This document shows positions 1,700 to 20,176 of a DNA stretch of 64,000 nucleotides, piece by piece (positions within the stretch are counted from its first letter, which is position 1; every line of letters starts with the position of its first letter). The position numbers were made by a program, and so were the translations under genes. The notes below the pieces were generated by a model that saw only the letters and a program-made list of their open reading frames with translations, was not told where the DNA came from and did no database searches. Source of the DNA: Giardia intestinalis (Eukaryota). Location of the stretch: NCBI GenBank assembly GCA_000002435.2, contig CM018791.1; one strand, 5' to 3'.

Positions 1700-3601
1700 A
1701 TGTTGTTAATAGTATTCTATCTTGTGCTGAGTGCTCTTGCGGCAAATTGTGAAACAGAAGGCAATAAAAGCAATTGTGACAGCGGTCGCTGTGAAATGGT
1801 TGGCATTGTTGAAGTCTGTACTCAGTGCAAGACAAATGGACACGTCCCTATTGACGGAGTATGTACGCCAAAGAACGAAGCAGATGCTAATTGTAAGAAG
1901 GATGGAGGGAGTCCATTAGATCAAGACGCTAAGATCTGCGGGCAGTGTGCTCAAGGATACTTCCTTCATAAAGGTGGATGCTATGCAATTGGTGGAAACG
2001 TTGGACGCATCATCTGTAATGATCCTACTCCTACACTCAAAGGGCGCAATTCTGTTGAGGGTGTTTGCTCAGCGTGCAATTCTACCAGTGGATTCTTTAA
2101 GAATCCTGCCAATGTAGCTAATAAGGATTCGTGCATAGCATGTGATGATACAACTGGTGATAGTGGCAATGTAGGTTTGGAAGGATGCGCCACTTGCCAA
2201 CATTCTGGTTCGGGAGCAGCCACATGCTTAACATGTAAAGATGGATACTATGATAATAATCCAAGTCAGGATACTGTTACATGTGCATCATGTACGGATG
2301 ACTGTAAGACTTGCATAGATACTGGAAATGCTAAATGCACATCTTGTCAGACAAAATATTTAAAAATTACGGACCCTAATGGTGTGTTTGGGGAATGCGT
2401 TGATGAAAACACATGCAAACAGCCAGGAACCCACTTTCCGATAACAACTACAGATAACATAAAGGTATGTGCTCTTTGTAGCGATGCGGAGAATAAGGGC
2501 GTAGTTGGCTGTGCTAAATGTACCTCGACCCCAGCAAGTGATTCCGGCAATGCAATCATTGTTAAATGCATAGAATGCACAACGCCAGATACCACCAAAC
2601 CCAACTTTGCCGGGACAGGGTGCTTTGCTTGTTCTGCAACAGATTGCTCTAATTGCAGTGCAGATAATGTTTGCGAAAAATGTGGGAAAGGAAAGAAGCT
2701 GAGCCCTTTAAAGGATAGTTGTTTAGATAGTTGCCCTGCTGGCACGCACAACAAGGATAACGTTTGTGTCCCTTGCCACACATCTTGTGCAGAATGTGCA
2801 AGTGATTCTGTGGGAGAAAGCTCATGTACAGCTTGCTATCCTGGATTTGCATTGCGCAAAGGCGAGGACGAGGCTACCGGGGCATGTATTCCAGAATGCA
2901 CGGGAAAGTACGCAGAAAACTGTGAAGCTGGCCAGTGCACAGCCATCGTTGGAGGCTCCAAGTACTGCAGCAAGTGCAAGGCTGGATACGTTCCAGTGGA
3001 CGGCGTCTGTGTGTCGACAACAGCAAGGACGCCGACTGGATGCACGCCAAATGATAACAATGATGGAACATGTAAGGAATGCACAACCACATACTTCCTG
3101 CAGTCTGGCGGGTGTTACAATGCACAGACATTTCCGGGCAAATTGCTATGCACAGCGGCCACTGGCAACGGGCAGTGTCAGACATGTGCAGCCAGTGGAC
3201 AAAGCCCAGCTGGAGGAAAATGTCCGGAATGTTCTGAGGGCTGTGCAAAGTGTACTGACTCTAACACTTGTAACGAATGCTTTTCAGGATATTACAAAGG
3301 TGCTGGTAATAAATGCTTTAAATGTACCGATGGTGACAAGGCTAACTCTGATGCAATAACTGGTGTAGAGAACTGCGTAAGCTGCGCGCCTCCAATTAGT
3401 GGCAATGGTGGCTCTGTCATCTGCTACGTCAAGACGGATGGCACTGGCGGTGGTGATAATGATAACAACACCGGCGGAAGCACGAACAAGAGCGGCCTTT
3501 CCACGGGCGCCATCGCAGGCATCGCTGTGGCTGCTGTCATCGTTGTAGGAGGCCTTGTGGGCTTCCTCTGCTGGTGGTTCATCTGCAGAGGAAAGGCGTA
3601 G
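1700..3601 (+). CDS. vsp: Variant-specific surface protein (VSP), complete, 633 aa.
   Basis: ATG at 1700 and TAG at 3599-3601. The protein has an N-terminal signal-like peptide (MLLIVFYLVLSALAANC). It is Cys-rich with dozens of CXXC motifs. GGCY motifs are present (KGGCYAIGG, SGGCYNAQ). It has a single C-terminal TM helix (GAIAGIAVAAVIVVGGLVGFLCWWFI). The last five residues are the VSP-defining CRGKA. A Giardia poly(A) signal AGTAAAC lies 13 nt after the stop. Confidence 0.95.
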   Translation: MLLIVFYLVLSALAANCETEGNKSNCDSGRCEMVGIVEVCTQCKTNGHVPIDGVCTPKNEADANCKKDGGSPLDQDAKICGQCAQGYFLHKGGCYAIGGNVGRIICNDPTPTLKGRNSVEGVCSACNSTSGFFKNPANVANKDSCIACDDTTGDSGNVGLEGCATCQHSGSGAATCLTCKDGYYDNNPSQDTVTCASCTDDCKTCIDTGNAKCTSCQTKYLKITDPNGVFGECVDENTCKQPGTHFPITTTDNIKVCALCSDAENKGVVGCAKCTSTPASDSGNAIIVKCIECTTPDTTKPNFAGTGCFACSATDCSNCSADNVCEKCGKGKKLSPLKDSCLDSCPAGTHNKDNVCVPCHTSCAECASDSVGESSCTACYPGFALRKGEDEATGACIPECTGKYAENCEAGQCTAIVGGSKYCSKCKAGYVPVDGVCVSTTARTPTGCTPNDNNDGTCKECTTTYFLQSGGCYNAQTFPGKLLCTAATGNGQCQTCAASGQSPAGGKCPECSEGCAKCTDSNTCNECFSGYYKGAGNKCFKCTDGDKANSDAITGVENCVSCAPPISGNGGSVICYVKTDGTGGGDNDNNTGGSTNKSGLSTGAIAGIAVAAVIVVGGLVGFLCWWFICRGKA

Positions 3602-3613
3602 ATGTACTTAGGT

Positions 3614-3620
3614 AGTAAAC
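3614..3620 (+). promoter_or_regulatory. Giardia poly(A) signal AGTAAAC (AGTRAAY consensus) for VSP copy 1.
   Basis: Sequence ggtAGTAAACacg, 13 nt downstream of the TAG stop. AGTRAAY is the established Giardia polyadenylation signal. Confidence 0.7.
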
Positions 3621-4086
3621 ACGTTACTTTATGTAGCTTATGTAGATGTGCTGCTGGAGCTATCTGAGCACGGCCCAGGGATCATGTGGGTGGGCCCGTT
3701 CCTTCCTGTCCAGTCCTGAGACGACTGTCGGTCATGGATAACATGACGGAGAGTCCTCTCCAGTGATATATTCAGAGTCTGGGCATTCCTCGGCCACTTC
3801 GCAGGGGTATGCTCTGTCTGGATATCCATACCGATCTGCCTTGGATTCGGGCCTTTTTGTAGACTCTCTGCTCTACCAATGGCGCCTCTCCTTAGTCTCT
3901 CTTCACGGTGGGTGAGGCCCGGGTCGCTGTCTTTTTTAGATGCCCCGTCTGTCAGGGGCTGCCACCGGGCTCTCCGCTGGCTGGGCCCCTCGGTGTCCGG
4001 GCAGCTGTGGTTCTGGGTCAGCGCTCCCACGGTCACGGTCACGTAGGTTCCATAGCGGGCCGGCTGGTGGGGAGGCCGGGGTTGCT

Positions 4087-4133
4087 GGGGCGGTGAGGGC
4101 TGCTGGGACCGGGTGGGGTGGTGAGGTGGGGGG
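4087..4133 (+). other. Putative G-quadruplex motif on the sense strand, about 0.5 kb downstream of VSP copy 1.
   Basis: GGGGcggtgaGGGctgctGGGaccGGGtGGGGtggtgaggtGGGGGG. It has at least four G3+ tracts with loops of 1-6 nt (4087..4118), then a further G6 tract. The surrounding 3' flank (3900-4160) is G-rich on the VSP sense strand. Confidence 0.5.
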
Positions 4134-4160
4134 TGTCTGTATGTGCCCCTGGGTCCGGTG

Positions 4161-5855
4161 AACTGGGGTGATCGCAGCTGTGGTGACTGGGGGCTGTCCA
4201 TCTGTGACTCACCCCTCTGTGGACTCGTGGTCTGTGAGTGCCTCCACCCAGACAGCACCCCAGGAGCCGGAGAGTGGTGCCAGCCTAGCTGCCCTCCCTC
4301 CTCGGTGCCTCCCAGTGCAGACTCACCGGAGGCCACTACCCTGTCAGCCACCCAAAGGAGCCGTGCACACCGGGACAGAGAGGATGACCAAGGGGGTCAA
4401 GCAGCCCTGCCACGAGGGTGCACAGCAACCAGCATGAGATGTAGGGTCTGCTCGAGCGATGTAGTGGCAGACGACTCCCTCTGACAGCGACCCTGGTGAC
4501 TGCACTGGTCTGCTCTCGAGGCTGAGTGACAGTGTGCACAGATGGACATGAGTGCAGGAGGACCGTCCACACACGGACAGACTGTGTGGACCCAGAGAGG
4601 ACTGGAGTCTGCTCGGGACACGCTGACTGTGTGCCCATACGAGAGTGCCAGGCAACTACTCAAGCACCGAGAGGCAGGTACAGACACGGGCACTAGAGAT
4701 CCCCAGCCAGACACATTGCTATGCTCATCCACAGGGGCATCAGAGGGCCAGGTGGAGTCACCCTCACAGTTAGGGCCTGATAGGAAGCCAGAGGACTCAA
4801 ACACTACAGCAGAGCAGGCCCAGAGGAGGCACACTCCAGGCAGGTGAGCAGTGGCAGAGCCTTGATAGCTGCCATCCACCCCCATGACACCCAGGCAGGC
4901 ACCAGACTCCGAAGACTCGCTGGCCTCGACTGATGACCCGAGGGGGCAGCAGCCAGAGGAGCGAGGAGGCCTTCGGACGCCACAAGAGGCCGGCTGTCCA
5001 GCAGGCGATGAGGCAGACAGGTGACCTCTGAGCACCACACAGGCACAGAGCCGACCATCATGAGTGATGCCCGATCACAGAGATGACCACGAGCGCCCTC
5101 CACCGCACTCTGGGGGGCTGTCGATCATCCCACTGCCTCTCATAGCAGACCTCCTTGGGGGCAGTGCAGTGGGTCCCAGCTCATACAGGAGGGTGTGTGC
5201 CCCCCTCAGTATAGGATGCCCCGACTCTTCCCGAGGGGTCATCAGAGCCACGAGGAGGGGTCAAGGTCCTGGTGGATCATATCGGGAACTCCCGAGGGCA
5301 CAGCAGGTGAGGTGTGGGTGACCCTCAGCGTGCTCCTCTCTGCATGGTAGAGCATCCTGAGACCAAGGAAGCTCACCCCTGCCTACGGATGATACACAGC
5401 GCTCCACAACAAGGACCCACAAGGAGCAGCACAGCTGACCACGGGGGCAGTGCAGCCACCCGGTACCCCACCATGCCAGTCTTCTGGGCCATCACACTAG
5501 AGGCCTGAGAGAACCCCATCCCATCCACAGGGTCATCCACACCCCTGCTGGCCCGAGGTGAACTGCACCCATCGAGGCACTGGACAGGGCATGCTGGGGG
5601 CCCAGCAGATCCACACAGAGCATCAGCACAGAGCATCAGCGAGTAGCAGGAGAGGCTGCGATGGCCTGCCTCAGCCCTCACGCACCAGCCAGACAGAGCA
5701 GTACTGCCTGAGGCATGCAGGGGCCAAGGGAGGCGCTCAGTCAGGGGACACGACACGATCGTCGGTGCCTCTGTCTCAGGAGTACAACGAAGGCTGAAGA
5801 GCAGACACAGTCACCTTGGCAAACAGAACGGGGATCACCCACCACCCCAATGGCC
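4161..5855. other. Unique 1695-bp spacer at the centre of the palindrome. It is GC-rich and CA/TG-skewed, not itself palindromic, and has no convincing coding capacity.
   Basis: The sequence diverges from the mirror at both ends. ORFs here (e.g. 4397..5038-, 4542..4847+) are low-complexity, overlap on both strands, and are expected from high GC with few stop codons. Confidence 0.7.
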
Positions 5856-5882
5856 CACCGGACCCAGGGGCACATACAGACA

Positions 5883-5929
5883 CCCCCCACCTCACCACCC
5901 CACCCGGTCCCAGCAGCCCTCACCGCCCC
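5883..5929 (-). other. Mirror G-quadruplex motif downstream of VSP copy 2 (minus strand).
   Basis: Reverse-complement mirror of 4087..4133. The plus strand is C-rich here (ccccccacctcaccaccccacccggtcccagcagccctcaccgcccc). Confidence 0.5.
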
Positions 5930-6395
5930 AGCAACCCCGGCCTCCCCACCAGCCGGCCCGCTATGGAACCTACGTGACCGTGACCGTGGGAGCGCTGACC
6001 CAGAACCACAGCTGCCCGGACACCGAGGGGCCCAGCCAGCGGAGAGCCCGGTGGCAGCCCCTGACAGACGGGGCATCTAAAAAAGACAGCGACCCGGGCC
6101 TCACCCACCGTGAAGAGAGACTAAGGAGAGGCGCCATTGGTAGAGCAGAGAGTCTACAAAAAGGCCCGAATCCAAGGCAGATCGGTATGGATATCCAGAC
6201 AGAGCATACCCCTGCGAAGTGGCCGAGGAATGCCCAGACTCTGAATATATCACTGGAGAGGACTCTCCGTCATGTTATCCATGACCGACAGTCGTCTCAG
6301 GACTGGACAGGAAGGAACGGGCCCACCCACATGATCCCTGGGCCGTGCTCAGATAGCTCCAGCAGCACATCTACATAAGCTACATAAAGTAACGT

Positions 6396-6402
6396 GTTTA
6401 CT
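6396..6402 (-). promoter_or_regulatory. Mirror poly(A) signal AGTAAAC for VSP copy 2.
   Basis: Reverse complement gtttact at 6396..6402, 13 nt after the minus-strand stop at 6415. Confidence 0.7.
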
Positions 6403-6414
6403 ACCTAAGTACAT

Positions 6415-8316
6415 CTACGCCTTTCCTCTGCAGATGAACCACCAGCAGAGGAAGCCCACAAGGCCTCCTACAACGATGACAGCAGCCACAGCGATGCCTG
6501 CGATGGCGCCCGTGGAAAGGCCGCTCTTGTTCGTGCTTCCGCCGGTGTTGTTATCATTATCACCACCGCCAGTGCCATCCGTCTTGACGTAGCAGATGAC
6601 AGAGCCACCATTGCCACTAATTGGAGGCGCGCAGCTTACGCAGTTCTCTACACCAGTTATTGCATCAGAGTTAGCCTTGTCACCATCGGTACATTTAAAG
6701 CATTTATTACCAGCACCTTTGTAATATCCTGAAAAGCATTCGTTACAAGTGTTAGAGTCAGTACACTTTGCACAGCCCTCAGAACATTCCGGACATTTTC
6801 CTCCAGCTGGGCTTTGTCCACTGGCTGCACATGTCTGACACTGCCCGTTGCCAGTGGCCGCTGTGCATAGCAATTTGCCCGGAAATGTCTGTGCATTGTA
6901 ACACCCGCCAGACTGCAGGAAGTATGTGGTTGTGCATTCCTTACATGTTCCATCATTGTTATCATTTGGCGTGCATCCAGTCGGCGTCCTTGCTGTTGTC
7001 GACACACAGACGCCGTCCACTGGAACGTATCCAGCCTTGCACTTGCTGCAGTACTTGGAGCCTCCAACGATGGCTGTGCACTGGCCAGCTTCACAGTTTT
7101 CTGCGTACTTTCCCGTGCATTCTGGAATACATGCCCCGGTAGCCTCGTCCTCGCCTTTGCGCAATGCAAATCCAGGATAGCAAGCTGTACATGAGCTTTC
7201 TCCCACAGAATCACTTGCACATTCTGCACAAGATGTGTGGCAAGGGACACAAACGTTATCCTTGTTGTGCGTGCCAGCAGGGCAACTATCTAAACAACTA
7301 TCCTTTAAAGGGCTCAGCTTCTTTCCTTTCCCACATTTTTCGCAAACATTATCTGCACTGCAATTAGAGCAATCTGTTGCAGAACAAGCAAAGCACCCTG
7401 TCCCGGCAAAGTTGGGTTTGGTGGTATCTGGCGTTGTGCATTCTATGCATTTAACAATGATTGCATTGCCGGAATCACTTGCTGGGGTCGAGGTACATTT
7501 AGCACAGCCAACTACGCCCTTATTCTCCGCATCGCTACAAAGAGCACATACCTTTATGTTATCTGTAGTTGTTATCGGAAAGTGGGTTCCTGGCTGTTTG
7601 CATGTGTTTTCATCAACGCATTCCCCAAACACACCATTAGGGTCCGTAATTTTTAAATATTTTGTCTGACAAGATGTGCATTTAGCATTTCCAGTATCTA
7701 TGCAAGTCTTACAGTCATCCGTACATGATGCACATGTAACAGTATCCTGACTTGGATTATTATCATAGTATCCATCTTTACATGTTAAGCATGTGGCTGC
7801 TCCCGAACCAGAATGTTGGCAAGTGGCGCATCCTTCCAAACCTACATTGCCACTATCACCAGTTGTATCATCACATGCTATGCACGAATCCTTATTAGCT
7901 ACATTGGCAGGATTCTTAAAGAATCCACTGGTAGAATTGCACGCTGAGCAAACACCCTCAACAGAATTGCGCCCTTTGAGTGTAGGAGTAGGATCATTAC
8001 AGATGATGCGTCCAACGTTTCCACCAATTGCATAGCATCCACCTTTATGAAGGAAGTATCCTTGAGCACACTGCCCGCAGATCTTAGCGTCTTGATCTAA
8101 TGGACTCCCTCCATCCTTCTTACAATTAGCATCTGCTTCGTTCTTTGGCGTACATACTCCGTCAATAGGGACGTGTCCATTTGTCTTGCACTGAGTACAG
8201 ACTTCAACAATGCCAACCATTTCACAGCGACCGCTGTCACAATTGCTTTTATTGCCTTCTGTTTCACAATTTGCCGCAAGAGCACTCAGCACAAGATAGA
8301 ATACTATTAACAACAT
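6415..8316 (-). CDS. vsp: Second, identical copy of the VSP (633 aa), convergent with the first.
   Basis: Exact reverse-complement mirror of 1700..3601, with a 100% identical translation in the ORF track. Confidence 0.95.
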   Translation of the reverse strand: MLLIVFYLVLSALAANCETEGNKSNCDSGRCEMVGIVEVCTQCKTNGHVPIDGVCTPKNEADANCKKDGGSPLDQDAKICGQCAQGYFLHKGGCYAIGGNVGRIICNDPTPTLKGRNSVEGVCSACNSTSGFFKNPANVANKDSCIACDDTTGDSGNVGLEGCATCQHSGSGAATCLTCKDGYYDNNPSQDTVTCASCTDDCKTCIDTGNAKCTSCQTKYLKITDPNGVFGECVDENTCKQPGTHFPITTTDNIKVCALCSDAENKGVVGCAKCTSTPASDSGNAIIVKCIECTTPDTTKPNFAGTGCFACSATDCSNCSADNVCEKCGKGKKLSPLKDSCLDSCPAGTHNKDNVCVPCHTSCAECASDSVGESSCTACYPGFALRKGEDEATGACIPECTGKYAENCEAGQCTAIVGGSKYCSKCKAGYVPVDGVCVSTTARTPTGCTPNDNNDGTCKECTTTYFLQSGGCYNAQTFPGKLLCTAATGNGQCQTCAASGQSPAGGKCPECSEGCAKCTDSNTCNECFSGYYKGAGNKCFKCTDGDKANSDAITGVENCVSCAPPISGNGGSVICYVKTDGTGGGDNDNNTGGSTNKSGLSTGAIAGIAVAAVIVVGGLVGFLCWWFICRGKA

Positions 8317-11300
8317 TGAGGCTCATTAGTTTATTAGAAGTAAGAATCTACTAGTAAATATATCCAAAGCTAAAACGCCCTACCTGATTATATGTTATGC
8401 CAGACAATCCAAAAAGATCTGTCCCCTACGATACTTTGTTTAATAAATAGGAATTCATTGAGTGCCAAGTACGTCCGCTGTACACAGCCCAACACTCCCC
8501 GCCTTCTCTGAAACCCCTTACGCAACACACAGGGAAACAGAAAATCCAAAAACAAGCGGTGATGCTGCCCCATGCGCCTGCAGCTCCTCTGTCCTGCCAT
8601 TAATCTGAGGATGGTCCGGGTGTTCCCGCTGTGCACCATGTTCGCTACCGGCTCCCTTCCTGGCGCCTCTGCATCCTTGAGGAGCCAGCCCCCTGCGCCT
8701 TCTTTGCGCGGGTCGGATCCCTGCGGACCCCCGTTTGCCAGCACTCTCTTCTCAGCCCCTGTAGCATTCTCCTCCACCATATAATGTCCACGACCACTGA
8801 CTGTCGTAGGAGAGCTGCACTCAAAGACGAGCTCCTGTGAGATTCTAGGAGAAGATCGGTGTGGTCGCTAGGGTCCATGGAAGATATGAACCAGCGTAGA
8901 TTAGCCCGTGAGACGTCTTGGTTTGTTGGGCGTGGACGGCGCTATTTTTCGCTTTTTGTAGTGGATATTTTAGGATACCTTACCGCATGACAAGGACTCA
9001 ATTAGAGTTCAGGAAACGCAGGCCAACACTTCTACATTTGGACAAGAAGCACTGCCCAAACCGCGCTGTCTCCTAAGCTAAGAAACCAGGACTTTCATTA
9101 CCCCTTTTGGATCATCCTGGTGCTGTCCATTGTAGCAGTAGTAGAACCATGATTGCTCGCAGCACCTGAATTTGTTGGTATGAACGACAAAGAGTTTCTT
9201 GTGGTGGGCTACTTCGGCAGAAAAAACTTAGGCCTGTCGTGTCGCTCCGCCAGCTATTAATCAGACCCGTAATCAGCGTCCCTGTGGTCTCAGGTAAGGT
9301 ACTAGGGTAGTCGGATCTCTATCTGCTGTTAGGGAGTCGAGCAGAGTCTGATTGTCACCGTTAGTCTAACTTATGGTTGGCCCTAGGTAAACAGATCGAC
9401 TGATACAAGCATCTTATCTCTGGGCTCACGAACCATATCATACGAGGTATTGCACCACTACAGCCCAACATACTTCTCTGATGCGTAATGCGAAAAGCAG
9501 ACCTCATTGCATAGCTATAGGAGTCTGATAATACCCGACTGGGGCATTATATTTTATGTGATCTCCAGTGTAGTTTCATTAGAGGCCAGAACACCGCTGT
9601 ATACAGACTGGTATGGAAAGTGGGATCCGGCAGCATACACCTTGAGCTGGGAGTCCCATAAACATGCATTTCTGATACAATTCCGCCACGGATCTTGTAG
9701 GAGGCTGACCTAGGTCAGTGACTGGAAGGCCTTCAACAGGAAAGCGAGTGCCGTGACCGTTGAAAGCCTGTCTACTTATCGTTATGAGGGACACCCACCG
9801 ATGCTTATTGCTACGGGGTAGGTGGGGCTTGCTCGCCTGTGAGACTTGACTGGTGTGCGTTTTAGACGATCGACGAGACTGATATCACTCTCTATCTGCT
9901 GGCTCTACATGAATGGACGAACTCTGTAGTTGACCGGTTATTCTAGAACGTCCTGCGCTTATGAGGTCACAGCTACAACTTGCATTAGATAAATAAAGGG
10001 TTCCATTGGGTTGTGATGCTCCCTGTAGGTCCTACGGGGTGTGAGGCTACATCAGTGCAGTCACCGAGATAGCAGCCCTGCCTAATTGAATTTCGCAGAT
10101 CCAGAGTACAGTGCAGTGCCTTCCAGTTTATGAAATCAAGCCTACCTCAGACAACGAGGACAGATGGAGACTCGGAGATGATCAATGCTAGTCTGGGCTA
10201 CTCCAATCTTTGCTATCCGAGGGAGCAGCAAACCCGCAGAATAACAGAAGTCCACTTATGCCCCTACCCAGGAGGCCGTGCCCTAGTGGAAGTACGTGCC
10301 ACGATCGCCGCTAATACCCGTTGACGGGCCATCATCTGCGCTCAAGGTCATGAGCTGGACCACTAGTTGAATACGAAGCAACAGTAATATTATACATACA
10401 ATAAGCCGAGAAGACCAATGCTGATTGTGTACCTCCCACGCTGAGCATACTCAGTGTGCAGTGCAAAGGGTCTAACGCCCTAAATAGTTTGTTGAAACCA
10501 AATGCGTGGTGCTAATCATATGCATGTGGACTCCAAACAGCGGCTTGCGAGGAGATACTGGGGCACAAGGGCTGTCAGGCCTATATGAGACGCACAGAGG
10601 ATCCCCACGCAGTAAACCGATTGACCCTTTTCCTTGGTAGGAAGACCCTAACCTGTAGTGGCCGCCTGCATGACACATTCCTTTGTGGGACCGATGGAGG
10701 CACCTGTTGATCTAGAAAGGCCATCAATAAATGGTTGCACGAGATGGACAAGCAAGGGACAGGAGCTGACTATACCACCCTGGGTGATGAGCAATCTAAA
10801 CTACATAATGCGTGTGCCAACCTTTGGTCGAAGGTGAAGGTACACTGTAGAACACCACGTGGCCGAAAAGTGTTGTTGATGATCATCTGCCATGAGAAGA
10901 CGTAGGTGAGACATCTGCGGACAGCAACCACGCCGACTGATACCAGCCTGCGCAGTATACCTCTACAAATGATCCTTGCCTGTATACGGAGAGAACTTAA
11001 GCTTCCTCGGTTTCAAGCGAAGTGGACCCCAATAGATATTATGCTGCTACAAATGCATAAAATCAAAAAGCAGCGTCCAGCTTGTCAGCGGGCCTCACGA
11101 TCTTTCCACACTCGAAGGGCAGAAAGATACTACAGGTGTCCCTATTGCAATCCAGACCGGTAGCTGGCCTCTCTAGCACCAGCCTTGCCCAACTGGTCCG
11201 CTGGTCACCCCTACCTTCTCTGTATGAACCGGTTCTCCAGGAATCGCCATGCACGGGCAGCCTTCTACGCACTTAGCCGACATCCTCCTTTGTTAAGGTG

Positions 11301-14300
11301 TGTCATCAAGGGGTAAGTGTTATAAAGAGGGTGCAGCCCGAGGCAGACCCTCTCGCAGTCCTGTCCAACGCTAGCAGCGAGCATGCAAACAAGCACATAG
11401 ATAGGTGAGGAGCGTGCCTTAGTCCAAACCGGTCACCACACTAATATCATAACAATTGATGTGTAGAGTTCTGCCTTTAGCTTTATATGTAGGTCTAGGT
11501 CTCACCTTGAAAGGCAGCAGAGCGTTCCATAACACCTTTCTGAATGTACATTTGTCATTACAACTGGTGGAAGTGCAAGTACAGAAACTGTATGCCTGCC
11601 TAAAAGGGTATCTAGTGCGATTAACTGCTATTCCTTGCTAGCAACAGATGGGTTAGATATTATGGTATCTATGCTACCTACTAGGACGGCACATGGCTAT
11701 GCATGGATCATCAGAGAAGCCGCTGTAATGCTTGTTCAATCTATTGGACAAGTGCAGCTTCTTGTCGCAACAAATGTGGCGGCGGGCAGGCCACCAATGT
11801 AAGCCAGGTGAACTGCCTATCCCGGTGCAGCTGTGCGCATCTAAAAGTTGGAGTACCTCTCCATAAAAGCGACACACCATCTATATATCTTTTTGCCTCA
11901 CTTTGTGCTATTCACAGGCTGTAATGCCTCAGAAGTCAGGGCTAGTGCAGAGTGCCCCAAACAATCCGTCTAGGGGACCAAGGTCGATACCGTGCATAAT
12001 ACATCCTCCTAGGGAGACAGCGGCTGCCGTCGTCGTCCCGGATTTTTTGGTGTCAGACAATCGGGCCCGTGGTGAGTTTACTCCTCGCAGCCCCTGTCCT
12101 GCATATCGAGGCTGACTTCTGGTTGCTTAAGTCGCGGACGAGGAGGTGATGCAGAGCGTCAGTCGCTGGGCTACCTTTTATCCGCACATGGTCCTGAATG
12201 GCAGGTCAGACAGTGCACAACTTCCTCTTCTACTCTGAATGTAGTGTCACCTATCTGAGATATATGCGCTTCCAGGGAGTGATTGGGTAGCATCTGGAGC
12301 TGCTCATGATGGGCATAGTCACTATTCATTTAGCTCTGCCCTTTTCCCAGCCATCAGGGGATACATCTTTAGCTACGTGCCCTAAAGTACTGCATAGCGA
12401 TAACAAGACGGCACCATTACCCCTCAGGTCTTCTTGGCTTGTCCGGCAGTGTGGACTTACCAGATGCATCGACACGACTATGGATACCTTACAGCATCGC
12501 ACCCACCCAGCTCACTGTGCACCCTGTCCCATCTAGAGAGTAGCCCAGTCGTGCACAGGAACCCTCAATTCCCATCCAGGGCCTGGTCCAATGCTCAGCT
12601 GGCTTGAACTCCCTGCTGTACCGTGTTGGATGCCGCGCTGAAGCTATCGGTCCGGCGATGCTCTGGGCACACCACTCCACACTCGCGCCGTCATAGAGCA
12701 CCGGTCCTCAAGCCGCCCGTGGCCCATTACGAGAGCTGTGGGGCATGACCGCACGCAGAGTGCCTGAATCAGTATGTCGTCTACCCGCTAATATGCTTCA
12801 CTAGTGCCCATCGATTCCGCTAGCACCTGTGAACGAAGACGTGTTGCTATGGTCGCACAGCTTTTTATATGTCCTAAAGACTCTCATGCTATACAGTACA
12901 AGGTTTGTTGCCTGGCAGTGGTTCCATGATACTGAGACTTTAAAAGGGGCCTTAAGTGTCTCCAGTCCCGTTCAGAGAGGAGGAGTACAAAAGGGCTAGC
13001 CACTTTCCAACGTGACTTAGAATAGTTAGAATATTGTGTGAAGGCATCTTATCACGTGACCAGCGCGGTGTCCTGCTCCCCGTCACCGATGTGAGGGCTG
13101 GTCCGCTGAGTTAGCATCAAGGCAGAGCACCACCCAACAGTGCGGGCGAGACTTATAACTTGTTCCTTCAATGTGCAGCTGCTTCGACTGAGGTTGCTAA
13201 AGTGTGGGTCCAGTAGCCACTATGCCCGTTGTACTGACAACGACAGCATGCCACTTGCTGTAGGCGCCATCTACCTCCAGGCATGCCCTCCACCGTCGTG
13301 CTGCCTCTGGTGCACTATGCGGCTTGTATGATGATTCATGTCCCCGGCGACCAATGGGAGTGTTGTCCCCGTGCCATCTTGATATCGAGTCTGATAACTG
13401 CTAAACAGAACTCCAGATGTGTATAGCCTCATATGGTAGTCTTGATGGACACACACATGCGTAATAGTTATACTGCAAGATCTAATAACAGCAGCTGGCC
13501 ACTCGCATTGAGGTGAGATACCAGACAGACGTAGAAGTGGAAGACCCAAGAGAAGCCGTACCTGTGATGAACTACAGATACGAAGAGACTCACCTGTCAC
13601 TGCCACGGGAACATGGCCTTATGCAGAGCATCAGCAAGCAATGCCACGAGCAGTACTCTGACTGTGCAGCAGCAAAGTGGCCGATGATATGGAATGCTGA
13701 CACATCTGCTGCCGTCATGGATGGACTGGCAAGCCAGACAAGGATGCTTTACCCTGAGATGAGCTGGCATGAAATTGTGTATGACTGGAGGACACTTCCT
13801 TGTTATGCCTGCTATCGGAAACCAGCTCATGAGATGGACAACCTTGGAGTGGTCAGCCCCCGCGTTCTCCCAGACATCAAAACTGTGAGGGTCTCTGTGA
13901 GTTCTCATGTTCTCGTTTAGTCACGCTGACTTGTCCTCAGAAGCAGTCATAACTGTCGGGCCTGTTCGGATGCCACTCCCCTGCAGGCCTCGGTGCTTTG
14001 AGCACGGTTTCCAGGCTGCATGCGTACGTTGAGGGACATCAGGTACGTCATCTGCTCCCTACTTTCTGAGCCTGCTATGACAAGAGTAGCCCTCACTAGT
14101 CTGAACCAGCCACGCCTCCTGGCGTCTCACCCCGGAAGTTGCAGGGATCAGACAGCTGGTGGCCTTATTTACGTTATGGCTGCCATGATGGCAAATCTAC
14201 TATCAGAGTTTTGATGAAATCCTCTTCGCTGTCCCTGGCGGACCTCCAACTCTTCAATGGGATAGATACGGGGCACAGTCTACCGACACTTCCAGCGAGG

Positions 14301-17300
14301 ATAGCAGGCGCAGTGCTCTCGATACCAATGATGGATCTACAAGAGGGAGCAGATCTTCTGCATGCCCCTGCCAGGAAGTGGCGCTGACGTGGGCCAAACG
14401 TATTGTCCCCGAGATGTCCTTGGAAGGTTGAGACCTCTGCTGATAGCAATCAAGGACTGGGCCAGCAGGTAACTCTAGGAGGATTCGGGTCCAGCTTCAG
14501 CCAGGAGTGTTTGTAAAGCAGCACCCGTGCAGTGAGGCTTCGAGAATCATCCAAGTGGCACTATCCAAGGACCACTTCCCCGAGAGAACAGAAGGTTGGG
14601 GGACCGACTCCTGAAGGGCGCTCTCGCAGTCTACTGAACAGAAGAGAGGGCCAGAAAGCAACAATCATCTCTGGATCCACAGCTCTTCTATCATAGAGAC
14701 ACTGGGATGGTCAGAGCACTCCCCTCAAGAAGAACAGGAAGTAACATAGCGGCACAGCGCTGATGCTCATGGAATATGGTTGATGAGCCCCTGGCTTCTG
14801 CTGGATACGAGATGCGTGCTGAGAGCAAGGTGTCTGGATTGGGACGGTTATGCCTCTCCAGAGAAGAGGCAGGAGGCGCCGTCATAGATGGGCATGTGCC
14901 TGAAGGAGACACACAGGGCGGTGGCTGCTCTGCTGGCAACAGAGGACAATCCGAAGCATGCAGGTCTCAAACAAAGAAACGTGCATTCTGAAGAACTATC
15001 GACGCTAAGGAACGAGCCAGTTCTCTGTATCACCCGGCAGAGGAGTATAAGGGCTGCTACTCGCTTCTCAAGCTTCTCACTCAACTTAGACTTCCCTGGC
15101 TTCCGATTACCACATGGACCACTGAGAGTGCTAACTGCTCTTCCAATCCACAATAGATGCGGAGCAATAGCAAGCTTCGTTTGAGCGCAGTACTAAGCAG
15201 CGTAATATATGCAAAGACAGCTCTTAGAAGTCAATGTAAGGTATCATCTTGGTAACGGCAATCGCCCTTGAATCAGCCGTTCAGTGGAGACAGGGGTCTA
15301 ATACGGCACAGTTGGGCCATATACAGGCAGTGGGTGTAAGAGCTATTGTAGACAGACACCGCCGCTAAGAACGCCAGAGGGGAGCTCCCATCAGCTAATG
15401 TGTTTCCAGAGCCACGTCTCTAGCGGAGCATGGCCTCCCGCAGTAAGATTTTGCAGGTGTCACCTGTAGTAATTCTGGATGCTTTATGGGGTGAAGCAGC
15501 TTATCCACAGACTTCACGAGACCGGGGCTGCCCACATAGCTACTAAGGTGAGAGAGTGTGATTGTACGGAGCAACGCTATGTCTGCTCTTCCATCACTTA
15601 GCGGCCAGAGGATTGCTCTCAGGCTGCACCTCCGCTCATAAGTGTGCGAGGGTTCCTCTAGTGATTGTCTCGTTGGCTAGTTAGCTACAGATGCCATGGC
15701 GACATAGATCACTAGTGCATACGCTGGGTTACTTTTTGCTAGAGCAGACAGAGGCATGACAGATCAATCCAGGAGCGTCTTCTCACGTCGCACGAAAATG
15801 TGGATCTACACACTAGGGGTGCATTCTCATAAACAGCTTCCTCTGCCATGACTCAGAGCTATCAGGCGAGCAGTGACGCTTCAGAGCCATCTGCCTCCTC
15901 TATGCGAGAGTTACTCGATAGACCAGAGTCGCTGCCAGAAGGTGTGCTTTGCAGCAGACAGAGTATCTCGTGTCTCAAGCCTGTCTGGCCGTACTAGGAA
16001 CTGAAGCCATGCCGCTAAGCCTCAGTGGATCAGAAAGCACTCCGCAGCCAGTGTGACTCTTGTGATGTTAGCTTCTGAGGCTATGGAGGAGCCCTTGGCC
16101 TCGTGGTCTTTGCACTATGGGTCCACTCATTTGGCCGTCTTACTCAGATGAGTAGAACGCGGTGCCTTCTGCAAGTCCCTATACTGCGAGTTCGCGCTAG
16201 GATCCATTAGTGTCTAACTAGTTTGGTGGAACTCTGCTCTTATCCCCACAAGTTTGTTACTGCAGATAACTCACTGTATTGACTCTATGGTGATCGCAAG
16301 TATTCCAAAGCTGGGGAACTGTCTGTTAGAGCTACCGGTCCCGGCCTTCATTAAGCCCGCGATTGCCTCATCAAAGCCTCCACACACTACGAAGCAGGTT
16401 TCTACCCGTCTGCTATGTACCTATGGTCTGCCTTAGACTTCGTGTGTCAGAGTCTGGTGTTGAAGGATGCGATTCTGCGTAGCTTAGTCAAAGCCTTACT
16501 AATTGGGTATCTGCTCTCATCTATCCGGATCAAGGATCTGTTGGCGACTATGCCTGAATCTGTTCTCTGCAGGAGTGTCCTCTCGGGCTGTAGATATCCT
16601 CTGTCCTCGAAGTGGTGCTAGTTCAAGCTGTCACAGTAAGTGGGGGCTCCTGCAGCCAGTGGAGTCAGCGTCTTCTGACCCGACATGCACCAGGGCCTCC
16701 AGAAGCAGCGACCTCCATCTGCCATGGCTAGTAAATGCCCTCCATAGAGCTTATACGGTGACATGGCCTTCCAAGCCGTAACGCCTAGGGTTGCGGATGG
16801 ATGTAAGCGATTGCTTCATAGAGTATTGCGACTATCAATAGCAGGGGAAATGAGAACAACAAGTAGCGGCAGCAGACCGTAGAGCAGCAGGTAGGAACGG
16901 GACTGGGTCGCGTTCGCTCTTCTACACTAAACTGGATCGTCTCTCTAAAAGACTCAGAGAGACGCAGCAGTGTCTCCGCGACTGTAAAGCAAGCCTAGTC
17001 AATTACCAGGCTTGTAAGAGAAACATGCAGCCAGACGCTGTAACTGCTGTCCGAGCAAATCCCTCATGCAAGTGCCATGCAAAGAACTTCCCTGCTTGTT
17101 CATCATCTGAAGTCAGGGAATCGAGGTTCAGATGTTGTCCCATTTTGGTGACAAAGGAGAATGCTTCTTCCCTCAAGGCGATAGCGAGTGCAGATGAGCG
17201 TTTGAAGCTGGCAATGGCGCCGATCACTCGCCACGCTTGTCGAGATGGACCCACACGTGATTCATATGAATCCCTTGACAAGAGATGAGGCCCTTGGGGT

Positions 17301-18181
17301 GCTTGGCTGACGGAGGCAAATTGAACACATGACCGCACCGAAGAGCGGTGGCGGCCTGGGCCACCTGCCGGGCGTCTGCTACAACAGCTGGCAGTGCCTG
17401 ACACCCTCGAGTAGGCGGACACTAAGCGAGACGACCTGACGGTGAACCGGTCCTGATCGCTCTTGGTGCTTCGGATGACGCCCCTCGGAGAGGTGGCCCT
17501 GGACTGACGCCTCGACAGACCGAAGCATCACCCCAAGTGTGCTGTGCAGATGGACCAGCCCACACGTCAGCCGAGCCAGACGCACTGCATAGAATGATGC
17601 GCCGACACGGTCTCGTGCTGGGTGACGGAGCACCTGCAAGAGTGCACTGTGATCCATGAGCAGAGGGCCATACTTCTCCCCCGACACAACACATGGGAGC
17701 TGTCCGTGGCATCCACAAACGCGTACCACAACTCCAAGATAGAGGCGCACGGGGAGCAGACCCTCCAATCATACTCGAGACTGATGGTATAATCCACGAG
17801 GAGACGAAGAGGCACCCCAAGGAACGAGGTAGACACCCGAAGTCATAGCGTATCCCATCTTTGTCATGGAGTACCAGAACCCTGGATTCTGTGGAGGCTA
17901 GACTACTCCCAAGGTCAGGTCACCGCAACTAATGCAAGGTCCTGAGATAGTAGGTGCCCACTAGTGCCAGACGGTAGTTGACCCCGACGGGCCAGAGGAT
18001 GGGACGTCCTGGAAGGCACCGTGGAAGCAAGCGATGGCCACCGGGGGAAGGAACACAACATCTTCTTCTCCCGCCGGAGATGGATGGAATCCAGCTTTCA
18101 GAGTCTGATTCCGGGCTTTGCCCAGAGCGGAGCGGCCCGTGTGGGACTTGCTCGGATATATCTCTTCAATAAAATCTATAT

Positions 18182-18808
18182 ATGAGACAGGGGCGTGGCC
18201 AAATTACATATACAGCGCCTCCATTGCAGCAGCCGGCCATTCAAACTCAACAGAATATAGTGTCCATACAGCCTATTGGTCATTCTGGTGCGCCAAGACT
18301 AGACTTTTCTGGACAGCTTTTGCAGACTCTTCAACAAGAGAAGCACATATTCAGCGACGAAGAGCTTGCATTGCCGTCTCTTCATTCAGCTCTGCCATGT
18401 ATTTCAGCAAAAGTTAGTACTACTGCCCGATGGCCTCCAGTACGGCCTAGCTTAGGAAATGTGTGGAATACGGCGTCTACAAAACATATTTCAACGATCC
18501 CAACCACAACTGACTTCCCAAAACCGTGCTCTTCATGGCTAGAGTCACTCAATACGATCTATCTGCAAGACGAGGACACGCTTTTTCTTATATGGATCGT
18601 TATGCCGGGAACACAGGCCCAGGAGCTGGCTGGCGCCGCCCTTGAGAAGCTTGGATGGCGCTACGATATCGACTCATCGGTTTGGTATCTCTGTGACACA
18701 CAAAATAAGGTGCTTTACTACGATACAGTAACCATGAGCCGGAAGGACTCCCTCAGTGCGCCATCTAACCTCTCAAAATGCTCGTTCTACATAGATGGGC
18801 ATATCTAA
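18182..18808 (+). CDS. CCR4-NOT complex NOT2/NOT3/NOT5-family protein (NOT-box), 208 aa.
   Basis: ATG at 18182 preceded by AT-rich caataaaatctatatATG. The C-terminal EDTLFLIWIVMPGTQAQELAGAALEKLGWRYDIDSSVWYL matches the NOT-box of CNOT2 (EDLLFYLYYMNGGDVLQLLAAVELFNRDWRYHKEERVW, recalled from memory). The N-terminus is Gln-rich. Confidence 0.7.
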   Translation: MRQGRGQITYTAPPLQQPAIQTQQNIVSIQPIGHSGAPRLDFSGQLLQTLQQEKHIFSDEELALPSLHSALPCISAKVSTTARWPPVRPSLGNVWNTASTKHISTIPTTTDFPKPCSSWLESLNTIYLQDEDTLFLIWIVMPGTQAQELAGAALEKLGWRYDIDSSVWYLCDTQNKVLYYDTVTMSRKDSLSAPSNLSKCSFYIDGHI

Positions 18809-18826
18809 TCTAATGTCTCTTTATTA

Positions 18827-20176
18827 TCACTCGTTGCTTCCGAAGATTGTCATCGATTGGTCGCCGCGGCACCCTATACCAGAATGCTCGTAGTCCTGCA
18901 TGTGAGTTTCACTTATATATTGCAGCCTGCACCCAGTACCACAAAGACATCTTTTTCTAGGCTTAATATTGCGATTTGTTAACCCAATGGTTGCTGTGCT
19001 TCTATAGAATGTACACATTGCCTCTACAATAATCTTCAAACAGCGATAACAGCAAAGCATTCCCTCACTGACGAACGAGTCTGCTCCGACGTACGGATAA
19101 AACGAGGCCGAATATTGGGCTTGAAGTGTACCGAGCAGTTCTTCCCACCCGTCCTCAATATATGTCTCTCCCTTTATCTGCTTATATATCTCGCATTCCA
19201 CTTGATTTCCGTACAAGGCTGTTAGGTCGCCAACAATAGTTTTTACCTCTTTTGGACTCCATTCTGGTAAGTATCTTATTAGTCTTACATCGGCACTATT
19301 ATTTGGAAAAGTGAATTCTTCTTTATGACGCTTACAAACAACGCAGATATAGGCTTCGTCTTTTTGATGGATTGCATTATCGAGGAAGGTTAGCAAATCT
19401 GGAAACGTGATCACCCCAGGGTCTATCTTTATACCGTTCTTTTGTAGCCCTGTAGTGATATGGGAGTATATATCAAGCGAGTAAGACAGGGTACTCTCAG
19501 ACTTTGTACATGTAAGCTCGGACGTTTGCTGACTCTGAGACTCCTCCGGATCAGCCCCTTGAACATCTGAAGGATTATTTGCTAGGAAAACCATTATGGA
19601 CGATTCCAGAGCTAAGTTCGGAAATATGGACTGTGGACCGAAGTGGCTGCACTTATCATGAATGCATATGCTCTCCAGCACGGGCGATGTGTGGGAGAAT
19701 ACATCAAATGAAAGGCTCAATCGCCCACTGCGGACCTCGTGGAGCTTAAGACACGGAAGGCAAAGGCTATGGCCACACCTGGTAAAGGTGTATGGATGCA
19801 GCAAAATAGTCTTGCAAAGGGGGCAAAGAAATGAACGGCGCATCGATAATTGGAAGGAGTCAACAAATCCATAGGGTATGGATTCAGCTGCCAGCATGTT
19901 GGAGAGCATAAGGATACGCTTGCGAGCAGGCTCAGCGCTTTGGGTAATGTGATCAAAGATTTTCTGCTCATCTACATTCTTGGGAGACGGCGGCTCTTCC
20001 ATGAGCTCGGCGTTTGTAGCATCCTTTAGGACGTAGTTTCTATAGCGTAAATTAAGGAGCTTAGTCTTTCCTAGATCGATCCGCTGAGGCGTTTCCGAAG
20101 ATTCAGAGTCGCTGGAGCTATGTGACTCGTCACCCAACGAGGACCTAGACGAGCTTTCCGACGAAAAGGATGACAT
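18827..20176 (-). CDS. RING-finger (C3HC4-type) protein, 449 aa, family unknown.
   Basis: ATG (cat) at 20174-20176. Motif CPLCKTILLHPYTFTRCGHSLCLPC plus Ser/acidic N-terminus. Convergent with the NOT2 gene, 18 bp apart. Confidence 0.6.
   Translation of the reverse strand: MSSFSSESSSRSSLGDESHSSSDSESSETPQRIDLGKTKLLNLRYRNYVLKDATNAELMEEPPSPKNVDEQKIFDHITQSAEPARKRILMLSNMLAAESIPYGFVDSFQLSMRRSFLCPLCKTILLHPYTFTRCGHSLCLPCLKLHEVRSGRLSLSFDVFSHTSPVLESICIHDKCSHFGPQSIFPNLALESSIMVFLANNPSDVQGADPEESQSQQTSELTCTKSESTLSYSLDIYSHITTGLQKNGIKIDPGVITFPDLLTFLDNAIHQKDEAYICVVCKRHKEEFTFPNNSADVRLIRYLPEWSPKEVKTIVGDLTALYGNQVECEIYKQIKGETYIEDGWEELLGTLQAQYSASFYPYVGADSFVSEGMLCCYRCLKIIVEAMCTFYRSTATIGLTNRNIKPRKRCLCGTGCRLQYISETHMQDYEHSGIGCRGDQSMTIFGSNE

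Follow-up and report, generated by a model that had tools for sequence, protein, structure and literature searches.

Results

The VSP pair and its inverted duplication

The window analysed here, a stretch of 64,000 nt, maps to chromosome 3 of G. intestinalis WB and contains the VSP pair GL50803_115830/115831, in agreement with the tables of Xu 2020 and Adam 2010. The left arm of an inverted duplication (1-4160, cut by the window start) holds VSP copy 1 (1700-3601, plus strand), and the right arm, as visible in the window (5856-10015), holds VSP copy 2 (6415-8316, minus strand). The two arms are 100% complementary and are separated by a unique palindrome centre (4161-5855), whose ORFs showed weak codon bias and gave no Pfam match reaching the curated threshold, apart from one weak sub-threshold match. 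Both VSP genes match PF03302 (E 2e-80); an exact look-up of the VSP protein returned no record. The inter-ORF spacer (3602-6414) is 2813 nt long, has a GC content of 61% and includes the inner 559 nt of each arm. Identity between the two copies ends 559 nt beyond the stop codon on the 3' side, and on the 5' side it extends for at least 1699 nt, limited by the window edge alone.

This pair has been described before. It is listed as convergent (-> <-), with 633 aa and 2813 bp, in Table 2 of Xu 2020 (PMC7000408), and as the tail-to-tail 'vsp 1' pair, with 2814 bp and a 3' divergence at 559 nt, in Table 5 of Adam 2010 (PMC2996952). The spacer length and the 559 nt of 3' identity reported for the identical inverted pairs of Adam 2010 (PMC2996952) were reproduced here; that study gives no 5' divergence point for tail-to-tail pairs, whereas we found at least 1699 nt of 5' identity.

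The end of the right arm at 10015 is the mirror image of window base 1, since 1+10015 = 4160+5856. It is therefore the window edge that fixes this arm end, and the inverted duplication must continue past 10015; the Logan contig L004 crosses 10016 unbroken and reaches 10088. The initial annotation had taken 10017 as the end of the palindrome and the start of a gene-free tract of 8165 nt, but the gene-free interval runs from the start codon of VSP copy 2 (8316/8317) to the ATG of a NOT2-like gene (18182), which amounts to 9865 nt. At least 10 short-read contigs from at least nine runs begin exactly at 978/9038, inside the identical arms. Such starts are not predicted by a simple two-copy inverted repeat, and they imply either an additional, partial copy or a structural variant between alleles.

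Coding capacity of the tract

The region directly 5' of VSP copy 2 (8317-17021) is anonymous non-coding DNA, with no detectable coding, repeat or RNA-family ancestry. The longest start-to-stop ORF within 8781-18181 has 139 aa, which bears out the earlier observation of an 8.2-kb tract with no ORF longer than about 140 codons. The ORF lengths are also random-like, as had been proposed: the longest stop-free segment in 10017-18181 has 174 aa and eight segments have at least 100 aa; in 300 approximately dinucleotide-preserving (first-order) shuffles of the same sequence, the longest segment averaged 152 aa (sd 27) and the number of segments reaching 100 aa averaged 6.9 (sd 2.4). A codon-bias scan, one of the checks proposed in the initial annotation, was trained on the window's own genes. 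Its log-likelihood was flat in all six frames over 8800-18000 (-8 to +12 per 300 nt), with the best local score at the ORF 13513-13920(+) (11.7), while nearly all 500-nt bins in the genes to the right of the tract scored 13-33.

Long ORFs cover ~95% of 18182-64000 (as the sum of ORF lengths), making the tract a strong local outlier. Its GC content is 52.3%, against 47.3% in the genes (18182-64000) and 57-59% in the reverse transcriptase (RT) regions of DH and P15; the section 10017-17000 has a GC content of 51.7% and a CpG observed/expected ratio of 0.59. Except for its NOT2-proximal end, the tract has no detectable coding capacity or coding history.

Searches for gene families, repeats and RNAs

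No Pfam family was found at E<=1 in a six-frame scan of 9600-18181, and the six-frame scan of the tract gave no RT, integrase, gag or transposase. The proposal that the tract is a VSP-pseudogene graveyard found no support, since none of the features of a VSP pseudogene (PF03302 similarity, a CXXC-rich frame and a CRGKA tail) was found in it: PF03302 was absent from the six-frame scan, and no frame contained more than 2 CXXC per 200 aa, compared with 4.1 per 100 aa in the VSP. The best VSP-like tblastn match (11724-11870, E 0.019, obtained without composition correction) was put down to cysteine composition.

Non-coding RNA loci, another of the earlier suggestions, gained no support either: an Rfam scan of 1-20000 gave no match at E<=1, a tRNA scan detected no tRNAs, and the RNA folding z-scores of the tract averaged +0.2, like those of the coding control. 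One hairpin window (16881-17030, minus strand) reached a z-score of -3.5, about the chance level for 124 windows, and was therefore not accepted as a signal.

In blastn and tblastx comparisons the tract matched neither itself nor the rest of the window, and no terminal repeats, other repeats or motifs were detected in it. For 10017-17000, the six-frame Pfam scan, the comparison with 150 RT relatives and the VSP, Rfam and repeat searches all returned nothing. An nhmmer search of 8781-17000 against four other loci gave no match, and a fifth locus (L027), compared by blastn and tblastx, matched only the retroelement relic described below and nothing else in the tract. Scans of JGI metagenomes with a protein pattern and a 24-mer were also without a match. 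A search of 38 concatenated stop-free segments against a set of 5.8 billion proteins found no match, but it was discarded as a negative result, having missed P0004 (87% identical), which is in the set.

A retrotransposon relic at the right-hand end

At 17022-18078, on the plus strand, tblastn with RT-family proteins revealed a 5'-truncated and frameshifted non-LTR (LINE-like) retrotransposon relic. The matching proteins were P0043 (E 1.2e-9), P0021 (E 2.6e-5), P0023 (E 0.001) and P0018 (aa 261-336, E 0.007), with HSPs in frames +3, +1, +3 and +2 and an in-frame stop in three of the HSPs shown. The relic appears to retain the end of the RT domain, together with the C-terminal region and 3' UTR. 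In P0018 the RVT_1 domain spans aa 98-304, and the relic covers only its last ~45 residues (aa 261-304); RVT_1 (PF00078) gave no match in the six-frame scan of the tract. Significant homology (E 1.2e-9) lies downstream of the domain. At the DNA level, the relic is ~65% identical to several P15 copies, which belong to a dispersed multicopy family with a common 3' end; they align at 17234-18078 and three of them stop at 18078, which is 104 nt from the first conserved gene. Its best matches are P15-type and metagenome fragments, with ~50% amino-acid identity.

To the left of 17022, none of the 150 RT-family proteins and none of the P15 or DH elements matched. The zinc-finger N-terminal parts of the family (P0016, P0017 and the P15 203- and 387-aa ORFs) had no match in the tract. 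These homologies mark 17022-18078 (+) as the dead remnant, truncated at its 5' end, of an element from a dispersed non-LTR retrotransposon family. The initial suggestion of a decayed retroelement is supported for the right-hand 1.1 kb (17022-18078), but the other 7 kb bear no trace of one. A frameshifted pseudogene had also been proposed from three minus-strand ORFs at 17003-17820; these lie on the wrong strand, as the RT relic in that place is on the plus strand.

GilM, GilT and GilD are non-LTR retrotransposons of Giardia (Arkhipova & Morrison 2001, as cited in Xu 2020, PMC7000408). The relic shows homology to the C-terminal portion and the 3' region of the Giardia LINE-like RT elements, but the N-terminal C2H2 zinc-finger region and the single intact ORF that Gil elements carry are both missing, as is most of the RT domain. 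GilD is a dead, chromosome-internal element, and the relic resembles it in these two respects.

The boundary with the conserved gene block

The first gene of a conserved syntenic block is a NOT2/3/5-like gene (18182-18808, plus strand; PF04153, E 2.5e-8), and from this gene onward the gene order is common to DH, P15 and Logan contigs. Similarity to assemblages AII and E at the level of genes stops shortly upstream of it. The zone between the variable island and this block (17970-18181) is marked by short-read contig ends and a drop in identity. A WB-type contig (L001) begins at 17970, AII-type contigs end at about 17885-18262, and another contig (L016) has a mosaic haplotype at the boundary. 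WB and DH (AII) share 94.5-99% identity per 200 nt rightward of 18000; leftward of it, inside the relic and as far as 17361, they share 72-83%, and beyond that point DH has another RT element followed by EamA, FMN_red and ABC genes. P15 (E) is 88% identical to WB down to 18161, where homology ends, and continues with a disrupted RT element, in which one ORF matches RVT_1 weakly, and then with DM10 and LMBR1 genes. Relative to WB, the P15 copy of the relic is inverted and lies 3.5 kb away, indicating a history more complex than a single shared insertion.

A homology search for the WB orthologue of the far-side neighbours in DH and P15 yielded only DM10 proteins of other lineages, and the two loci retrieved from it (L025 and L026) had no match to the window. 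No VSP pair was found at the orthologous position in DH or P15. From these alignments, the same chromosomal position in AII (DH) and E (P15) is seen to hold fragments of other RT elements, with a different set of genes downstream and without the VSP pair.

Independent copies of the tract

Exact look-up found records for three of 27 tract ORFs: 13513-13920(+), 13597-13908(-), which is XP_001709827.1 / GL50803_119070 of the 2007 WB annotation, and 14888-15184(+), which is UPI0001CA7243. Two independent contigs are 100% (L003) and 99.97% (L004) identical to the window. In the sections that could be compared (8388-10088 and about 13286-15184), the tract is real WB DNA, and there the earlier suggestion of misassembled or foreign sequence is refuted. 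The contigs covering 13444-14434 and 6968-10088 come from runs whose assemblies comprise several hundred thousand to more than 1 million contigs.

A second Giardia lineage, represented by orthologous contigs from two metagenomes (ERZ28637962 and ERZ18497307), matches 13286-14273 at 90-92% identity. Two gaps were counted in ~810 nt, and a 2-nt indel lies inside the longest plus-strand ORF (13513-13920). The substitutions (52 transitions and 12 transversions) are distributed over codon positions as 7/9/14, with no 3-periodicity and no third-position excess. This pattern looks neutral and free of coding constraint, although 90-92% identity with few gaps, to a lineage of unspecified distance, could instead mean constraint. 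No homologous long ORF, which the initial annotation had named as evidence against its reading, was found in other isolates for the bulk of the tract.

Discussion

A gene-poor VSP flank

Regions around VSPs in G. intestinalis WB are gene-poor and show more allelic variation (Xu 2020, PMC7000408). Intergenic distances at VSPs have a median of 1280 nt and a mean of 2131 nt (79 and 392 nt across the whole genome), GC content is 53.9% in the 2-kb upstream regions of VSPs, and duplicated VSP pairs are 'always surrounded by retrotransposon relics' (Rodríguez-Walker 2022, bioRxiv 10.1101/2022.03.07.483299). The tract agrees with this picture in several ways: it adjoins a VSP of a listed duplicated pair, directly at its 5' end, it is far longer than the genome median, it has an elevated GC content, a retrotransposon relic is present within it, and it lies at a synteny break between assemblages. 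It differs in extent, its 9.9 kb being several times the published mean VSP intergenic length (2.1 kb), and in that only ~1.1 kb is tied to a transposable element. The tract is a large but ordinary example of the gene-poor VSP flank already described, and the VSP-associated island of the initial annotation is right as a description, one already published (Xu 2020; Rodríguez-Walker 2022).

Origin of the tract

Our preferred reading, which we consider probable, sees the tract as a long non-coding flank on the 5' side of VSP copy 2 and as part of a lineage-specific 'VSP island' that abuts the conserved block at about 18000-18160. Such an island may have arisen when retroelements inserted and decayed, after which the VSP was duplicated and inverted along with its flank. 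The relic would have become the synteny breakpoint as dispersed copies of it rearranged or underwent gene conversion, and the other roughly 7 kb would be filler, drifting neutrally, that the duplication took along. Calling the ~7 kb (10017-17000) neutral filler is an argument from absence, with no positive identification. As the arm is cut off, so far as it is visible, by the window edge alone, the tract probably belongs, in part or as a whole, to the outer right arm of a larger inverted duplication.

The relic at 17022-18078, a GC content elevated like that of the DH and P15 RT regions, and the relics reported around duplicated VSP pairs (bioRxiv 10.1101/2022.03.07.483299) would also fit a tract derived in its entirety from decayed retroelements, either a single large one (GilD-like, with long untranslated regions) or several stacked together, of which only the youngest piece can be recognised. 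This is unlikely, as the 150 RT-family proteins and the P15 zinc-finger parts match nothing left of 17022, Pfam found no RT, integrase, gag or transposase, and the tract has neither self-matches nor terminal repeats, with the nhmmer search empty in four loci and the L027 match confined to the relic. Moreover, the relic has its truncated 5' end towards the tract, the orientation expected if a 5'-truncated LINE had inserted into pre-existing DNA. Even harder to credit is a hidden protein-coding gene broken by sequencing errors, frameshifts or introns, which we regard as very improbable. Before polishing, this assembly is known to have contained PacBio homopolymer errors (Xu 2020, PMC7000408), and the ORF 13513-13920 has the best local codon score, but codon bias is flat in six frames, Pfam gave no matches, L003 and L004 agree almost completely with the window, and this same ORF contains a 2-nt indel in the other lineage, with no third-position excess. 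Least probable of all is a misassembled or foreign origin: short-read contigs do stop at the right edge of the tract and only a few tract ORFs can be traced in short-read assemblies, yet two tract ORFs were already in the 2007 WB annotation, an independent contig is 100% identical, diverged orthologous contigs occur in two metagenomes, and the long ORFs that bacterial DNA would have are missing.

A functional non-coding VSP domain, for example a block of heterochromatin, an insulator, or an inverted duplication that gives rise to long antisense RNA or dsRNA, would aid mutually exclusive VSP expression. Its position directly 5' of a VSP in an inverted pair would suit this, as would the 90-92% identity with few indels in the second lineage, the unusually long and GC-rich upstream regions of VSPs (bioRxiv 10.1101/2022.03.07.483299) and a 991-nt contig (13444-14434) and a 3.1-kb contig (6968-10088) that, at a guess, may come from RNA-seq runs. 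The tract has no structural RNA signal, repeats or motifs, however, the island is missing at the orthologous position in DH and P15, and the divergence pattern looks neutral, so that this explanation has a small chance of being correct. The chance is, if anything, slimmer that the ~7 kb form a conserved cis-acting chromatin or RNA domain, namely a silencing or insulator block, a dsRNA source from a palindrome of at least 24 kb, or an unmapped Giardia centromere (no Giardia centromere map was found in the literature searched). If this were true, the ~90% identity in the second lineage would have been kept through the need for one-at-a-time VSP expression or through chromosome function. A role of the tract in chromatin-level VSP silencing is speculation.

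Significance of the locus

As a caution, an apparent end of a palindrome at a window edge must not be taken for its boundary. The locus raises no question beyond those already posed in the literature, and that ORF-free Giardia DNA concentrates around VSP genes is already published. What it offers is a base-level view of one VSP-island border, in which a dead LINE-like relic lies next to a conserved block. The drop in sub-assemblage identity inside the relic and the mosaic haplotype in one isolate fit relics as seams of antigen-region rearrangement.

The VSP pair and its inverted repeat

The gene-free DNA between the second VSP copy and the NOT2/3/5-like gene is the non-coding flank of a VSP island, WB-lineage-specific at this position, and a dead LINE-like relic is the seam between this island and the conserved chromosome. 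The window contains one perfect inverted repeat, with arms at 1-4160 and 5856-10015, which carry identical VSP genes of 633 aa at 1700-3601 (+) and 6415-8316 (-), each matching Pfam family PF03302 (E 2e-80). The pair agrees exactly with the chromosome 3 entry 115830/115831 of Xu et al. 2020 (PMC7000408, Table 2; -> <-, 633 aa, 2813 bp apart). In Adam et al. 2010 (PMC2996952, Table 5) this pair appears under the name 'vsp 1', in tail-to-tail orientation, with 2814 bp between genes and a 3' divergence of 559 nt, equal to the identity past the VSP stop in the window (4160 minus 3601). The ORF at 18827-20176 (-) is GL50803_0011054 of G. intestinalis WB.

Position 10016 had been taken as the palindrome end, a reading that we reject. 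The right arm ends exactly at the mirror of window base 1 (1+10015 = 4160+5856), so the boundary is set by the window edge; the left arm is cut by the window start, and the duplication must be bigger than visible, running past the left side.

The spacer between the VSP tails (3602-6414) has a GC of 61%, a CpG o/e of 0.44 and a strong excess of CA (1.44) and TG (1.38). On its minus strand are two ORFs, 237 and 213 aa long, with weak codon bias, for which a Pfam search gave nothing at or above the curated threshold and one weak sub-threshold match (E 0.01). Upstream of each VSP there is a 130-aa ORF (1236-1628 (+) and 8388-8780 (-); UniParc UPI0001CA7240) that is predicted as a gene on 18 Logan contigs. 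Pfam gives no match for it and its codon-bias score is low, so it is probably spurious.

At least ten short-read contigs that include the VSP 5' flank (L007-L013 among them), from at least nine runs, begin exactly at the mirror positions 978/9038, which lie 722 nt ahead of the VSP ATG within the 100%-identical arms, and three contigs (L004-L006) read through them. These shared starts suggest either a partial third copy or structural variation between alleles. The site has no low-complexity sequence.

Non-coding character and authenticity of the tract

The initial annotation had described a stretch lacking long ORFs from 10017 to 18181. The stretch exists: between VSP copy 2 and the NOT2/3/5-like gene at 18182 the longest ORF measures 139 aa. 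Its true left limit, however, is the VSP start codon, which makes it 9865 nt long. The proposed likeness to random sequence also held: stop-free segments in 10017-18181 extend to at most 174 aa, eight of them to 100 aa or more, against a mean maximum of 152 aa (sd 27) and 6.9 such segments (sd 2.4) in 300 approximately dinucleotide-preserving (first-order) shuffles. These counts lie within the shuffle values, so the ORF content is as expected for random DNA with the same composition. A codon-usage log-likelihood scan, a check that had been suggested at the outset, was trained on the long genes of the window itself and gave scores of -8 to +12 per 300 nt throughout 8800-18000, versus 13-33 in nearly all 500-nt bins of the genes from 18182 on. 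Long ORFs cover about 95% of 18182-64000 (sum of ORF lengths), and the tract is a real, extreme local outlier. Its GC is 52.3%, versus 47.3% in genes. CpG depletion is stronger in 10017-17000 (o/e 0.59) than in genes (0.73).

Misassembled or foreign DNA, another proposed explanation, is refuted for 8388-10088 and about 13286-15184, the parts covered by independent sequence. The ORF at 13597-13908 (-) is XP_001709827.1, 'hypothetical protein GL50803_119070', of the 2007 annotation, and the ORF at 14888-15184 (+) has an exact UniParc entry. Over 13444-14434 the window has 100% identity to a Logan contig assembled from an unrelated run; a second Logan contig spans 6968-10088, unbroken across the supposed palindrome end. 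Two ENA metagenome contigs, both from one other Giardia lineage, match 13286-14273 with 92% and 90% identity. By these comparisons the tract is genuine wherever checkable.

The metagenome lineage has a 2-nt deletion within the longest + ORF of the compared segment, and differs from WB by 7/9/14 substitutions by codon position and by 52 transitions and 12 transversions; coding constraint is thus not indicated. Transitions make up 80-85% of the divergence of these contigs (L014/L015), and CG in WB corresponds to TG or CA in the other lineage at 8-10 sites, with none in the reverse direction, suggesting CpG-to-TpG decay in these VSP flanks.

Searches for ancestry were negative over most of the tract. 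Stop-masked translations of 9600-18181 in all six frames matched no Pfam family at E<=1, and no repeats within the tract or against the whole window were found by blastn (word size 7), tblastx or a repeat finder. A VSP-pseudogene graveyard is unsupported, as no VSP remnant was present in the tract. Non-coding RNA loci likewise find no support, with empty Rfam and tRNA scans and RNA-folding z-scores (mean +0.2, sd 1.1) indistinguishable from the coding control. Just beyond the relic 5' end, 16881-17030 (-) contains two perfect hairpins of 10 and 11 bp, and 1 of 200 shuffles folds equally well; it was rejected as an RNA signal, its z of -3.5 being about chance among 124 scanned windows. Tract ORFs concatenated with X gave no match, though the 87%-identical protein P0004 was in the same collection; this miss makes negatives of such queries unreliable.

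A retrotransposon relic at the synteny break

In P15 (assemblage E), a broken non-LTR reverse transcriptase (RT) element lies beyond NOT2 as three consecutive ORFs. Their products and 150 relatives (HMMER) matched the window solely at 17022-17666 (+), with a best E of 1.2e-9, and had zero matches left of 17022, where P15 and DH (assemblage AII) loci also gave none. The synteny comparison with P15 provided the sole positive identification within the tract. An in-frame stop interrupts at least three alignments, the matches spread over frames +3, +1, +3 and +2 (from coordinates), and the alignments begin at about residue 261 of the retrieved protein P0018, whose RVT_1 domain spans residues 98-304, indicating that the copy is 5'-truncated and dead. 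Several P15 copies align to the DNA of 17234-18078 with about 65% identity, and three of these alignments stop at 18078, which we read as the 3' terminus of the element, 104 nt upstream of the NOT2 start codon.

A decayed retroelement, as had been proposed, thus accounts for 1.1 kb (17022-18078), with no retroelement trace left of 17022. The pseudogene suspected at 17003-17820 is indeed decayed coding sequence, the RT relic, but on the + and not the minus strand; the minus-strand ORFs are antisense by-products of the GC-rich relic (57%).

In P15 contig L019 (ACVC01000226.1), the LINE-like element adjoining NOT2 occupies 10274-13317, and its three ORFs comprise a weak C2H2 zinc-finger match, a weak RVT_1 match (CxxC zinc-finger-like motifs by eye) and a C-terminal part. 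Another P15 contig, L027 (ACVC01000108.1), has at its end a further RT-family locus, with ankyrin and NEK genes around it; there the ~1-kb 3' segment of the family occurs in both orientations, as three or more long copies plus several short pieces.

P15 is 88% identical to WB across the gene block as far as 18161; past it lie 3.5 kb without window counterpart, an inverted RT element, a 236-aa ORF, and DM10 and LMBR1 genes. DH is 95-99% identical per 200 nt in genes and 72-83% within the relic; the match ends at 17361, followed by a different RT element and EamA-like, FMN-reductase and ABC-transporter genes. The VSP pair and the 7-kb tract are absent at this position in both isolates.

A multiple alignment of the relic zone displayed a steep identity gradient and a 17-nt indel. 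The AII-type contig L016 is near-identical to WB right of ~17935 and carries the DH-type haplotype to the left (versus L021/L023), a mosaic indicative of recombination or gene conversion within the relic. NOT2-bearing short-read contigs stop in the boundary zone in each assembly shown (WB-type at 17970, AII-type at about 17885-18262). The WB-type contig that begins at 17970 has its other end at about 37990, in the narrow interval separating ORFs 33412-37956 and 38111-40588.

Discussion

For this VSP flank, the direct observations are its non-coding nature, the relic, the break in synteny and an elevated GC. The island probably formed by retroelement insertion and decay, with duplication/inversion of the VSP plus flank, and exchange among dispersed relic copies could have produced the paralogue-level AI/AII identity inside the relic. 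Neutral evolution would then account for the remaining tract as filler, some or all of which probably belongs to the outer arm of an inverted duplication larger than the visible one.

Xu et al. 2020 reported that the surroundings of VSPs contain few genes and show increased allelic variation. Rodríguez-Walker et al. 2022 (10.1101/2022.03.07.483299) gave figures for this, with VSP intergenic regions of median 1280 nt and mean 2131 nt, versus 79 and 392 nt genome-wide; the 2 kb preceding VSPs have a GC of 53.9%. They described duplicated VSP pairs as 'always surrounded by retrotransposon relics', and a 7-kb region upstream of VSP1267 like those of other pairs. The novelty remaining here is that the unidentifiable 7 kb might form a functional chromatin or RNA domain, which we consider very unlikely. 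Otherwise the region is of an already known kind, and the tract is a large example of this published class of VSP flanks.
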